Virus genome (UHGV): UHGV-0152227
Source: a virus
Length of the DNA: 43,955 nucleotides
Direction: 5' to 3' (one strand)
Shown here in pieces: positions 41,656-42,621 of this stretch; position 1 is the stretch's first letter; each line of letters opens with the position of its first letter. The notes beneath the pieces are model-generated. The model saw only the letters and a list, made by a program, of their open reading frames with translations, was not told the DNA's origin and searched no databases. A program made the position numbers and the translations under genes.

Positions 41656-41685
41656 TTGACAACGCCGCATTAACGGGTCTATATT
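41656..41685 (+). promoter_or_regulatory. promoter of the antirepressor-2 leader
   Basis: TTGACA (41656-41661), GCCGCAT at +8 (41664-41670), and TATATT (41680-41685) after an 18-bp spacer. Confidence 0.55.
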
Positions 41686-41723
41686 CCGCTTCATGGTGCT
41701 GAACACACCTTCGAAAGCGGAAA

Positions 41724-41751
41724 CCGCACCCGTCAGTCATGCGGCTTTTTT
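41724..41751 (+). terminator. weak terminator/attenuator in the antirepressor-2 leader
   Basis: Stem CCGCA (41724-41728) / TGCGG (41740-41744), then C and a T6 run. Confidence 0.5.
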
Positions 41752-41770
41752 ATGTCCATTTTTCAGATAT

Positions 41771-41852
41771 GGTCGGGTAGCGCGTATACCGAAAAACAGC
41801 CGCAAGGCTAAGGATGCGGGCCGAACTTTCGACGGTGTTCAAGTACCTGACC
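41771..41852 (+). ncRNA. candidate c4-like antisense RNA 2 (boundaries approximate)
   Basis: Closing stem GGTCGGG (41771-41777) / CCTGACC (41846-41852, one GU pair). Internal AGCC-GCAA-GGCT hairpin. CTTTCGA-CG-GTGTTCA (41826-41841) is complementary to TGAACAC (41860-41866) and TCGAAAG (41884-41890, overlaps the SD). Confidence 0.4.
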
Positions 41853-41901
41853 GCCCTGCTGAACACAGGGTAATCTGAACGAATCGAAAGGACATAAAAC
41901 C

Positions 41902-42621
41902 ATGGCTACTCAAATTTCTGTTGAATCTCTTTCCCCAATTACCTATAACCACATCCCCGTCATCACTACCGAACTACTGGCGCGACTTTACAGCACTGAC
42001 ACTAATAACATCAAAGTGAACCATTCGCGCAATGCCGATCGCTTTGTTTGTGGAAAACACTTTTTCAAAGTTGTTGGCGATGAGCTGAAAAATTTACGGG
42101 TTACTTTAAGTAACTCACAAAATCCAGTATCCCCCAAAACTCGCTCCCTCATCCTCTGGACAGAACGCGGAGCAGCCCGCCATGCCAAAATGCTGGAAAC
42201 CGATCAGGCGTGGGAAGTGTTCGAAAAACTGGAAGACTGCTACTTCGACAGAAAACCCGCAAATCTCAGTGGAGATGTTCGTCTCTCAGGTGGAACTGAT
42301 TTATCTAAGGCCTCTCAGGTAATTGAAAAATTCATGCCCGCCATTATGGAGGCGATCAAGCTGGAAGACAAAAAAGAATACAGTGCCCCGCTGAAGCCCG
42401 GCTACCGCAGCCTGATTCATTCGCCGTCTGGTGTTCTCGGCCTGACGGAGAACTCACTGCTGATGAATCTGCTGAACCAGTTACAGGAAGACGGGCACGA
42501 CGTATCGGGTGCGGCGGCGGAGCTGACCACCATGTTCTGCTACATCGTCGGTGTGAGCAAATGTCTGCGTGATATCCAGACCCACGCGGAGTACATCAAC
42601 GACAAGGCAGGGTTCTTCTGA
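41902..42621 (+). CDS. antirepressor 2 (ORF6N/KilA-N-type N-terminal domain + shared C-terminal domain)
   Basis: PVITTELLARLYSTDTNNIKVNHSRNADRFVCGKHFFKV is the ORF6N pattern. The last ~81 aa are identical to those of the 8476-9186 protein. Confidence 0.8.
   Translation: MATQISVESLSPITYNHIPVITTELLARLYSTDTNNIKVNHSRNADRFVCGKHFFKVVGDELKNLRVTLSNSQNPVSPKTRSLILWTERGAARHAKMLETDQAWEVFEKLEDCYFDRKPANLSGDVRLSGGTDLSKASQVIEKFMPAIMEAIKLEDKKEYSAPLKPGYRSLIHSPSGVLGLTENSLLMNLLNQLQEDGHDVSGAAAELTTMFCYIVGVSKCLRDIQTHAEYINDKAGFF

Follow-up and report, generated by a model that had tools for sequence, protein, structure and literature searches.

Which kind of control unit lies directly upstream of ant2, the second antirepressor gene of the virus genome UHGV-0152227? 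The window analyzed here is the whole 43,955-nucleotide (nt) stretch, and the region in question (positions 41656-41905, here called module 2) had been described in a first-pass annotation as a c4-like antisense module with recognition boxes different from those of a first module (module 1) upstream of ant1. That observation was confirmed, and the c4-like interpretation is supported. The cassette is probably a self-contained riboregulatory unit of the kind represented by P1 c4, Gifsy-1 IsrK-C4 and P4 seqA-CI-seqC, in this case with an antisense RNA of the RF02221 (sRNA-Xcc1) class. The c4 mechanism itself was known; the recognition of RF02221 as a second class of c4-like cassettes and a chimeric origin of ant2 are proposed here as new.

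Organization of the cassette upstream of ant2

Behind a promoter, the region upstream of ant2 has a three-part layout, consisting of leader boxes a1 and b1, antisense boxes b'-a' and target boxes a2 and b2, with exact matches between the parts. The elements are as follows.

41656..41685, + strand: cassette promoter; TTGACA at 41656-41661, an 18-nt spacer and TATATT at 41680-41685 (11 of 12 consensus matches)
41695..41709, + strand: leader hairpin GGUG-CUGAACA-CACC, whose 7-nt loop presents box a1; present in the minimum free energy (MFE) fold
41700-41706, + strand: box a1, TGAACAC (exact sequence match)
41711-41717, + strand: box b1, TCGAAAG, single-stranded and complementary to b'; inverted repeat I3
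41724..41751, + strand: leaky intrinsic leader terminator; CCGCA at 41724-41728, an 11-nt loop, TGCGG at 41740-41744, C, and T6 at 41746-41751
41748..41768, + strand: 5' strand of a bracket helix, holding the anti-Shine-Dalgarno sequence UUUUAUGUCC; inverted repeats I4 and I7
41771..41856, + strand: c4-like antisense RNA of the RF02221 (sRNA-Xcc1) class; closing stem 41771-79 / 41844-52, 3' tail GCCC
41783-41818, + strand: hairpin 1 of the antisense RNA, with a GCAA tetraloop
41820-23 / 41833-36, + strand: stem of hairpin 2 of the antisense RNA, whose 9-nt loop carries b' (41826-32)
41826-41841, + strand: antisense boxes b'-CG-a', CTTTCGACGGTGTTCA (CTTTCGA-CG-GTGTTCA), the exact complement of a and b
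41835-41, + strand: a', in the single-stranded 3' joint of the antisense RNA
41854..41870, + strand: box a2 hairpin CCCUG-CUGAACA-CAGGG, whose loop presents a2; present in every fold
41860-41866, + strand: box a2, TGAACAC, an exact repeat of a1
41873..41899, + strand: translation initiation region, with the 3' strand of the bracket helix, a partial a copy (CTGAAC, 41875-80), b2 and AAGGA; inverted repeats I4, I7 and I8
41884-41890, + strand: box b2, TCGAAAG, overlapping the ant2 Shine-Dalgarno sequence AAGGA (41888-41892); ATG at 41902
41902..42621, + strand: ant2, 239 amino acids (aa), antirepressor family (PF10543 ORF6N, 2.8e-19; phrog_1760 'anti-repressor', 1.1e-91)

The positions given by the first-pass annotation for the boxes, the antisense segment, the Shine-Dalgarno sequence and the ATG were all borne out base for base. 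Its closed region of ~82 nt (41771-41852) also stood, but the closing stem has 9 bp (base pairs; 41771-41779 / 41844-41852) and not the 7 bp that had been described. The a..b combination was found three times in the 44-kb window (two sense, one antisense), always within the module, where none was expected by chance, and the complete three-part module appeared in 0 of 20,000 shuffles of 41656-41905.

The promoter is a near-consensus sigma-70 promoter and begins 3 nt past the stop codon of the preceding open reading frame (ORF); transcription would start at about 41692. A TTGACA...TAnnnT promoter was found at the equivalent place in every homologous cassette. The spacer at 41662-41679 (CCGCATTAACGGGG) is kept across cassettes that differ in boxes and RNA subfamily, and may be a regulator binding site or may simply reflect shared ancestry.

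The leader hairpin covaries among relatives. Its stem is GAGG/CCTC in two Escherichia coli cassettes (L001b and L006b) and GGAG/CTCC in Xanthomonadaceae, and a1 always lies in the loop. The weak terminator that had been noticed at 41724-41751 held up as well. Its T-run is invariant in the homologue alignment, and its stem changes compensatorily from CCGCA/TGCGG to CCAAC/GTTGG in L001b-type cassettes; a consensus terminator scanner missed it because of the 11-nt loop. In the larger module sets described below, 72-76% of modules had a T-run behind the leader boxes, within the 70 nt that precede the RNA, compared with 10-16% in a control window, indicating that the leader terminator is part of the family design.

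Family membership and fold of the antisense RNA

An Rfam scan of the window returned four matches, namely one transfer RNA (tRNA), isrK, C4 and RF02221. The RF02221 match lies at 41771-41860 and scored 64.2 bits against a gathering score of 53, over the full model (positions 1-87 of 87). Judged by the covariance model of the family itself, the RNA in the window is thus a member of sRNA-Xcc1, named for a Xanthomonas campestris integron cassette small RNA (sRNA). The scan with the Rfam C4 model that the first-pass annotation had suggested was negative; with lax filters and a limit of E<=10, no RF01695 match was detected in 41600-41950, whereas the C4 RNA of module 1 scored 66 bits with the same model (threshold, 45 bits). 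In the scan of 41600-41950 the leader likewise gave no isrK (RF01394) or c4-a1b1 (RF03163) match at E<=10, and its class is absent from Rfam. The antisense RNA of module 2 would work like c4 yet is no member of the C4 family, and membership in C4, isrK and c4-a1b1 was rejected.

The MFE topology of the antisense RNA agrees with the three-helix fold of RF02221. The C4 and RF02221 models have a common topology, with a closing stem, hairpin 1, hairpin 2, a single-stranded joint and an ACC-type 3' tail. No separate promoter serves the antisense RNA, which starts with GGU, usually preceded by T at -1, and whose closing stem is followed by RCC(A/C/U). Alignment of mixed-length subfamilies with MAFFT and RNAalifold gave a poor consensus, and a gapless length class was used instead. 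Among 12 diverse relatives of this class, which were chosen partly by closing-stem complementarity, 93.5% of cells were paired compared with 72% in shuffles, a value reached by 0 of 500 shuffles, and 15 of the 22 pairs were changed on both sides.

Hairpin 1 has an apex, ATACAA-N-ACCCG-N-AAGGGGAA, that hardly changes between copies, unlike the remainder of the RNA (viral contigs L011-L130 and genome contigs L133-L252). This apex was found in Enterobacteria, Pseudomonas, Xanthomonas, Bartonella, Neisseria, Desulfovibrio, Azospirillum, and metagenome-assembled genomes of Bacteroidota and Acidobacteria; the copy in the window is a diverged version (CCGAAAAACAGCCGCAAGGCUAAGG). The apex could be a contact for a protein or for RNase P.

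Covariation of the boxes in close relatives

Sequences with 75-99% identity to the module were present in 55 phage records, mostly of phages converting to Shiga toxin (Stx) 2a, as well as in 263 of 5,426 complete E. coli genomes; none of these copies was annotated. The similarity ends just before the start codon, and the gene that follows varies by record (ORF6N, BRO, AntA/AntB, Ant or Rha). A given module can stand ahead of different genes, and a given gene N-terminus can stand behind modules whose boxes differ.

An Rfam scan of ten E. coli loci detected 14 further RF02221 matches, each ~40 nt upstream of an antirepressor-type gene and most of them in tandem arrays that also hold an isrK-C4 cassette. 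Arrays of two or three cassettes were seen in eight E. coli or Stx prophage loci (L001, L002, L004-L008 and L010), with isrK-C4-ant followed by one or two RF02221-ant units and intergenic spacers of ~255 nt; in L007 the C4 cassette is followed directly by the RF02221 cassette, with no gene between them.

In the flanks of the E. coli loci, the word in the hairpin-2 loop, the leader word and the word adjacent to the Shine-Dalgarno sequence change together. Ten b specificities were found across the E. coli cassettes and that of phage HEMP4, with b', b1 and b2 co-changing; in the E. coli loci b1 covaries with b' in nine specificities beyond the one in the window. Examples of the b'/b pairs are listed here.

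CTTTCGA/TCGAAAG (window)
CTTGTAT/ATACAAG
CTTTGCA/TGCAAAG
CTATCGC/GCGATAG
CTACTTG/CAAGTAG
CTACTGA/TCAGTAG
CTTTTGG/CCAAAAG
CTTTAG/CTAAAG
CTTGTAAG/CTTACAAG

The a boxes covary likewise (GTGTTCA, GTTTTGAG, TTTCGAG and TTCTGA), and the L003 type has an equivalent a2 hairpin, CCCU-CUCAAAA-GGGG, with its own a box.

Covariation at scale and the genes downstream

A large-scale search by the conserved apex of hairpin 1 yielded 83 distinct modules from viral contigs and 98 modules from bacterial contigs, one genome per species. In each module, the longest loop or joint word was sought whose reverse complement occurs in the upstream 150 nt and again in the downstream 85-100 nt, and cognate pairings were compared with non-cognate ones.

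Viral modules, both flanks, at least 7 nt: 60% of cognate and 1.7% of non-cognate pairings
Viral modules, both flanks, at least 6 nt: 88% of cognate and 15% of non-cognate pairings
Bacterial modules, both flanks, at least 7 nt: 45% of cognate and 2.5% of non-cognate pairings
Viral modules, upstream flank only, at least 7 nt: 85% of cognate and 18% of non-cognate pairings
Bacterial modules, upstream flank only, at least 7 nt: 95% of cognate and 21% of non-cognate pairings

The two sets contain 70 and 83 distinct cores. In nearly all viral modules the downstream word directly adjoins AGGA or AGGAG, 5-12 nt ahead of an ATG. The antisense boxes thus co-change with the leader boxes in more than 150 distinct modules, and in phage cassettes they also co-change with the boxes at the ribosome-binding site, which strongly supports the three-part c4-like layout that had been read from the single copy in the window.

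Two viral contigs (L011 and L023) carry the b' of the window, CTTTCGA, together with a different a', GTTTTGA, indicating that a and b boxes reassort independently. Specificity probably needs both boxes.

The phage genes behind the modules are almost all of the antirepressor family. Among 69 genes downstream of viral modules, the domains found were Rha (14), ORF6N (13), P22_AR_C (13), Bro-N (11), KilA-N (11) and AntA (10). The 82 downstream genes in bacterial genomes included Bro-N (16), Rha (9) and the SymE toxin (6). For ant2 itself, the matches to PF10543 and phrog_1760 bear out the earlier assignment and point to an antirepressor-family protein.

The Xanthomonadaceae copies (L134, L140, L150, L166, L175, L194, L196, L202, L217, L221, L230 and L243) lie in integron cassettes and are of the original sRNA-Xcc1 type. 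They come with a promoter, a hairpin loop presenting a1, box b1 and a strong terminator, all covarying with b', but no a2 or b2 was found ahead of their downstream ORF, which encodes the SymE toxin in six cases and other proteins elsewhere. The copy in the window is a full three-part antirepressor cassette, whereas around the RNA these copies keep only the promoter, the a1b1 leader and its terminator. This indicates that leader pairing is universal in the family and that a block at the ribosome-binding site is particular to the antirepressor cassettes; any control of SymE or the other ORFs would not be exerted in that way.

Proposed mechanism

The sequence layout, family membership, fold, three-way covariation and association with antirepressor genes are observations, whereas the processing of the RNA, the effect of each pairing and the event that triggers the switch are inferred. 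The promoter at 41656-85 would yield a leader of ~60 nt, with a1 in a hairpin loop, b1 single-stranded and a leaky terminator at its end. Read-through would enter the three-helix RNA of ~82-86 nt (41771-41856), which has a tRNA-acceptor-like closing stem, a GGU start and an RCC end. By analogy with c4 and CI RNA, this RNA would be excised from the read-through transcript, with RNase P making the 5' end, and would then accumulate. Pairing of b' with b2, over the ant2 Shine-Dalgarno sequence, and of a' with a2, in its hairpin loop, would block translation of ant2 from the cassette's own transcript and from any incoming genome bearing the same boxes. The leader a1b1 would act as a decoy or anti-antisense, as the short IsrK does, and/or as the site of antisense-promoted early termination, as in P4.

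Both a1 and a2 lie in the 7-nt loop of a small hairpin and b' lies in a loop, whereas b1 and b2 are linear, so that each contact is made from loop to strand. The leader is the stronger partner of the antisense RNA (-24.5 kcal/mol, compared with -16.9 kcal/mol for the target), and its complementarity runs beyond the boxes; this fits the decoy or activator role and the P4-like termination role alike. Since specificity resides only in the two short boxes, module 2 would be orthogonal to module 1.

Folding of the transcript with and without the leader gave different structures. Without the leader (MFE of 41746-41915, -56.4 kcal/mol, z-score -3.6), a bracket helix forms between 41748-68 and 41873-99, in which UUUUAUGUCC...UUCAGAU pairs with AUCUGAA...GGACAUAAAA; the folded RNA then lies inside this helix, and the Shine-Dalgarno sequence is masked. 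With the leader (41692-41915, -74.4 kcal/mol, z-score -3.4), the antisense region is instead extensively paired to the leader, leaving the Shine-Dalgarno sequence open. These predicted folds suggest that two conformers compete in the read-through RNA, as at the IsrK locus. Analogous bracket helices of different sequence were predicted in five related cassettes (L009, L003, L005, L007 and L006b), and none was predicted in the L001b, L010a or HEMP4 cassettes. In the unprocessed transcript the bracket helix could additionally hide the Shine-Dalgarno sequence, and on these models it may be a cis block of that sequence or an RNase III site.

Several results weigh against the proposed mechanism. The full-length transcript favors pairing of leader and antisense region in cis, which could mean that the RNA acts mainly within its own transcript. 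Co-folding of the antisense RNA with the translation initiation region, a check proposed in the first-pass annotation, gave a gain of only -3.9 kcal/mol, although plain MFE folding is blind to loop-to-strand contacts. A cognate/non-cognate matrix calculated with RNAduplex on long flanks separated the pairs only partly; it was noisy because of GC-rich terminator stems, and the exact-word tests were used instead. The C4-type models do not recognize the RNA, so that the likeness established with c4 is one of topology and logic, not homology. Finally, the Xanthomonadaceae copies, with neither a2 nor b2, mean that translational blocking is not a universal function of the family.

Alternative explanations

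The best-surviving alternative is that control is exerted mainly on transcription, as in P4. The antisense RNA would act on the nascent a1b1 leader to enforce the stop at 41724-41751, so that transcription of ant2 is regulated and a2b2 is secondary. P4 CI RNA operates in this way (cited in PMC4825925 and PMC3632133), and the family data agree with such a mode in that a1b1 and the terminator are universal, 95% of the genome modules have an upstream match of at least 7 nt and the Xanthomonadaceae copies dispense with a2b2. The last G of b1 also sits in a hairpin (GCGG 41717-20 / CCGC 41724-27) that overlaps the terminator stem and competes with it, the two hairpins being nearly isoenergetic (-9.1 and -9.7 kcal/mol). 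This hairpin, however, is not conserved in L001b-type or Xanthomonas cassettes, and the anti-terminator idea, confined to two subfamilies, is a minor possibility. In the phage antirepressor cassettes b2 consistently lies over the Shine-Dalgarno sequence, which points to a translational block. Termination as the main mode is considered fairly unlikely.

A purely conformational switch in cis, in which the three complementary segments fold alternatively within one read-through transcript and no diffusible RNA is excised, appears less likely still. The Shine-Dalgarno sequence would be open when the leader pairs with the antisense region, and closed by the bracket helix or by pairing of the antisense region with the translation initiation region. 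The two predicted folds described above speak for such a switch, and regulation in Gifsy-1 has been explained largely through two messenger RNA conformers (PMC4825925). A pure messenger RNA switch would nevertheless have no need of the closing stem, the start with GGU and the tail with RCC, all of them conserved and covarying. Moreover, relatives accumulate as discrete RNAs of ~80-100 nt (PMC2996969; STnc1160, PMC4825925), and the short IsrK works in trans. Both this switch and the termination mode are compatible with the proposed riboregulatory unit.

It is very improbable that the RNA is a trans-acting sRNA with host or virulence targets and that the local complementarity is incidental. sRNA-Xcc1 and its homologues have been published as trans-acting or virulence-linked (PMC2996969, PMC12189769, bioRxiv 10.1101/2020.03.17.996009), but more than 150 box sequences are each matched by their own flanks, no conserved seed is present, and the a..b combination in the window is confined to the cassette. 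That the repeats are coding features of a 61-aa ORF (41693-41878), an orf45- or icd-like upstream peptide, is barely conceivable, because even though an ATG-initiated frame spans the whole cassette and orf45 of Gifsy-1 is translated over the C4 region (PMC4825925), in homologues 88-93% identical the start is lost (AAG) or the frame is shifted by 1-nt indels in the hairpin-2 loop, and the ORF has no family match.

Comparison with known systems

Module 2 resembles the immI region of P1 and P7 (c4, RF01695; leader, RF03163) in the order of promoter, a1b1, structured RNA, a2b2 and antirepressor gene. In both systems b2 lies at a ribosome-binding site, the RNA starts with GGU, and a few bases set the specificity, the basis of heteroimmunity. 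The b2 of P1 overlaps the Shine-Dalgarno sequence of an upstream icd-like ORF, whereas b2 of module 2 overlaps that of the antirepressor gene itself. The closing stem of module 2 has 9 bp compared with 17 bp in c4, and its hairpin 1 is long, with a highly conserved internal-loop/GNRA apex. Both RNAs have a closing stem and hairpin 1, carry b' in the loop of hairpin 2 and a' in the 3' joint, and end in an ACC-type tail, the c4 side being as summarized in PMC5320573. According to that summary, c4 is processed by RNase P at GGU, and its b' occludes the ribosome-binding site.

With the IsrK-STnc1160 (C4)-AnrP locus of Gifsy-1 (Hershko-Shalev 2016, PMC4825925), module 2 has in common a short terminated a1b1 leader, read-through into an RNA of ~80 nt (processed in Gifsy-1 and putatively so in module 2) and an antirepressor gene, a lambdoid or prophage context, and a leader that is more extensively complementary to the antisense RNA than the target is. 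The short IsrK activates antirepressor translation in trans (PMC4825925), and the IsrK/STnc1160 pair is constitutively expressed in lysogens (PMC7067206). Unlike Gifsy-1, module 2 has a leader that is no isrK member and forms a single hairpin ahead of the terminator where Gifsy-1 has two; module 2 has no orf45-like conserved frame, and its antisense RNA is from a different family. Module 1 is exactly of the Gifsy-1 IsrK-C4 type.

The P4 seqA-CI RNA-seqC and N15 CA RNA systems likewise have a small RNA, processed there and putatively processed in module 2, that is flanked on both sides by complements within one transcript and serves immunity or anti-immunity control. They act by premature transcription termination, whereas the downstream target in module 2 is the Shine-Dalgarno sequence of a gene. 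Control of the c4 type and heteroimmunity are classical (reviewed in PMC12197685 and PMC5320573), and IsrK-C4 pairs in lambdoid prophages have been recognized as P4-like (PMC3632133).

For sRNA-Xcc1, the Xanthomonas family member is a discrete RNA of 88 nt, as determined by Northern blotting and end mapping (PMC2996969). sRNA-Xcc1 has been described as trans-acting and controlled by HrpG/HrpX, and it stands outside the Rfam C4 clan. The literature searched treats it throughout as trans-acting or virulence-linked, and a non-exhaustive search that did not include the founding paper found no published statement that it is c4-like; a preprint on Xanthomonas integrons mentions only an unexplained position upstream of symE (10.1101/2025.06.18.660453).

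An RF02221 match in E. coli EDL933 has been reported as abundant and poorly covered by ribosomes (PMC5331693). This sRNA-Xcc1 was published at position 1392052, which in NZ_CP008957 falls in a hok/sok locus (L131, 1390800-1393200). The published coordinates are thus from another assembly, and the reported expression is not tied to a specific cassette.

Implications for the family

For the family as a whole, the balance of the evidence tips modestly toward a broader reading, in which all RF02221 RNAs form a second, pan-bacterial structural class of c4-like, address-programmable riboregulators. Members would always have their own promoter, a1b1 decoy leader and terminator, and phage copies would add a2b2 at the antirepressor ribosome-binding site. 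The cassettes would be swapped as units at the boundary between Shine-Dalgarno sequence and ATG and stacked in orthogonal arrays, amounting to a natural collection of more than 150 RNA switches, each orthogonal to the others, for the control of prophage anti-immunity.

Many prophages, among them those of Shiga toxin phages with near-identical cassettes, rely on antirepressors as the trigger for escape from repression. With one short-address RNA per antirepressor, the boxes would show which prophages can cross-silence or cross-induce each other. This reading would also correct that of the widely auto-annotated sRNA-Xcc1, since published predictions of host or plant targets overlook the match between the variable loop of each copy and the flanks of that copy. 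The family also provides many compact riboregulator cassettes that are orthogonal by nature, and a tractable system for studying the role of the upstream a1/b1 copy in c4-type systems.

The prophage, module 1 and the origin of ant2

The window is essentially one phiV10/epsilon15-like podophage prophage. Over 72-78% of the queried stretch (20000-43955), it is 97% identical to HEMP4, ZX5, TL-2011b and phiV10. The further features of interest are as follows.

8243-8319, + strand: isrK-type a1b1 leader of module 1 (RF01394, 63.5 bits)
8344-8427, + strand: C4 RNA of module 1 (RF01695, 66 bits)
8430-36 and 8457-64, + strand: targets of module 1, a2 TTGGCGT and b2 CTAAGTGG, respectively, ahead of the ant1 ATG at 8476
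8476-9186, + strand: ant1, with a Bro-N N-terminal domain
42655-43905, - strand: integrase gene (int)

Module 1 was confirmed as isrK plus C4, and its boxes are unrelated in sequence to those of module 2, as had been stated. Together with the Bro-N ant1, it is the resident 'anti-immunity' region of phiV10-like phages. Ant1 and Ant2 have 86% identity over their last 103 residues and do not differ in the last ~80 (BLASTP), whereas the N-terminal domains are unrelated (Bro-N and ORF6N, respectively). The segment 41656-42246, which comprises module 2 and the N-terminal half of ant2, resembles lambdoid and Stx phage cassettes, and for the 3' part of ant2 (42346-42646) the match is to the phiV10-type antirepressor. 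Judged by these similarities, ant2 looks like a chimera in which an imported RNA module and sensor-side domain were fused to the resident output domain.

HEMP4, which is 97-98% identical, carries another RF02221 cassette at the same site next to int (b, CTTCAAAG; a, ACTAGA; L132, 1270-1530). The N-terminus of the antirepressor at that site also differs, and the record is unannotated. This difference indicates that the site beside int behaves as a cassette slot.

The first-pass annotation had singled out the presence of two orthogonal cassettes in one prophage and had linked them to two induction inputs. The first point proved not to be special, as arrays of two or three cassettes are common in E. 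coli prophages and the two-module layout was already present in the deposited HEMP4 genome. The second was weakened, because both promoters look constitutive and the C-terminal domains of Ant1 and Ant2 are near-identical; the shared domain suggests a single output.

Two minor features of the prophage were also recorded. A tRNA-Arg gene (anticodon UCU) lies within it at 27048-27124. Just downstream of ant1, the ORF at 9461-10033 has a weak match to the YafO toxin (PF13957, 1.2e-05), barely over the cut-off.

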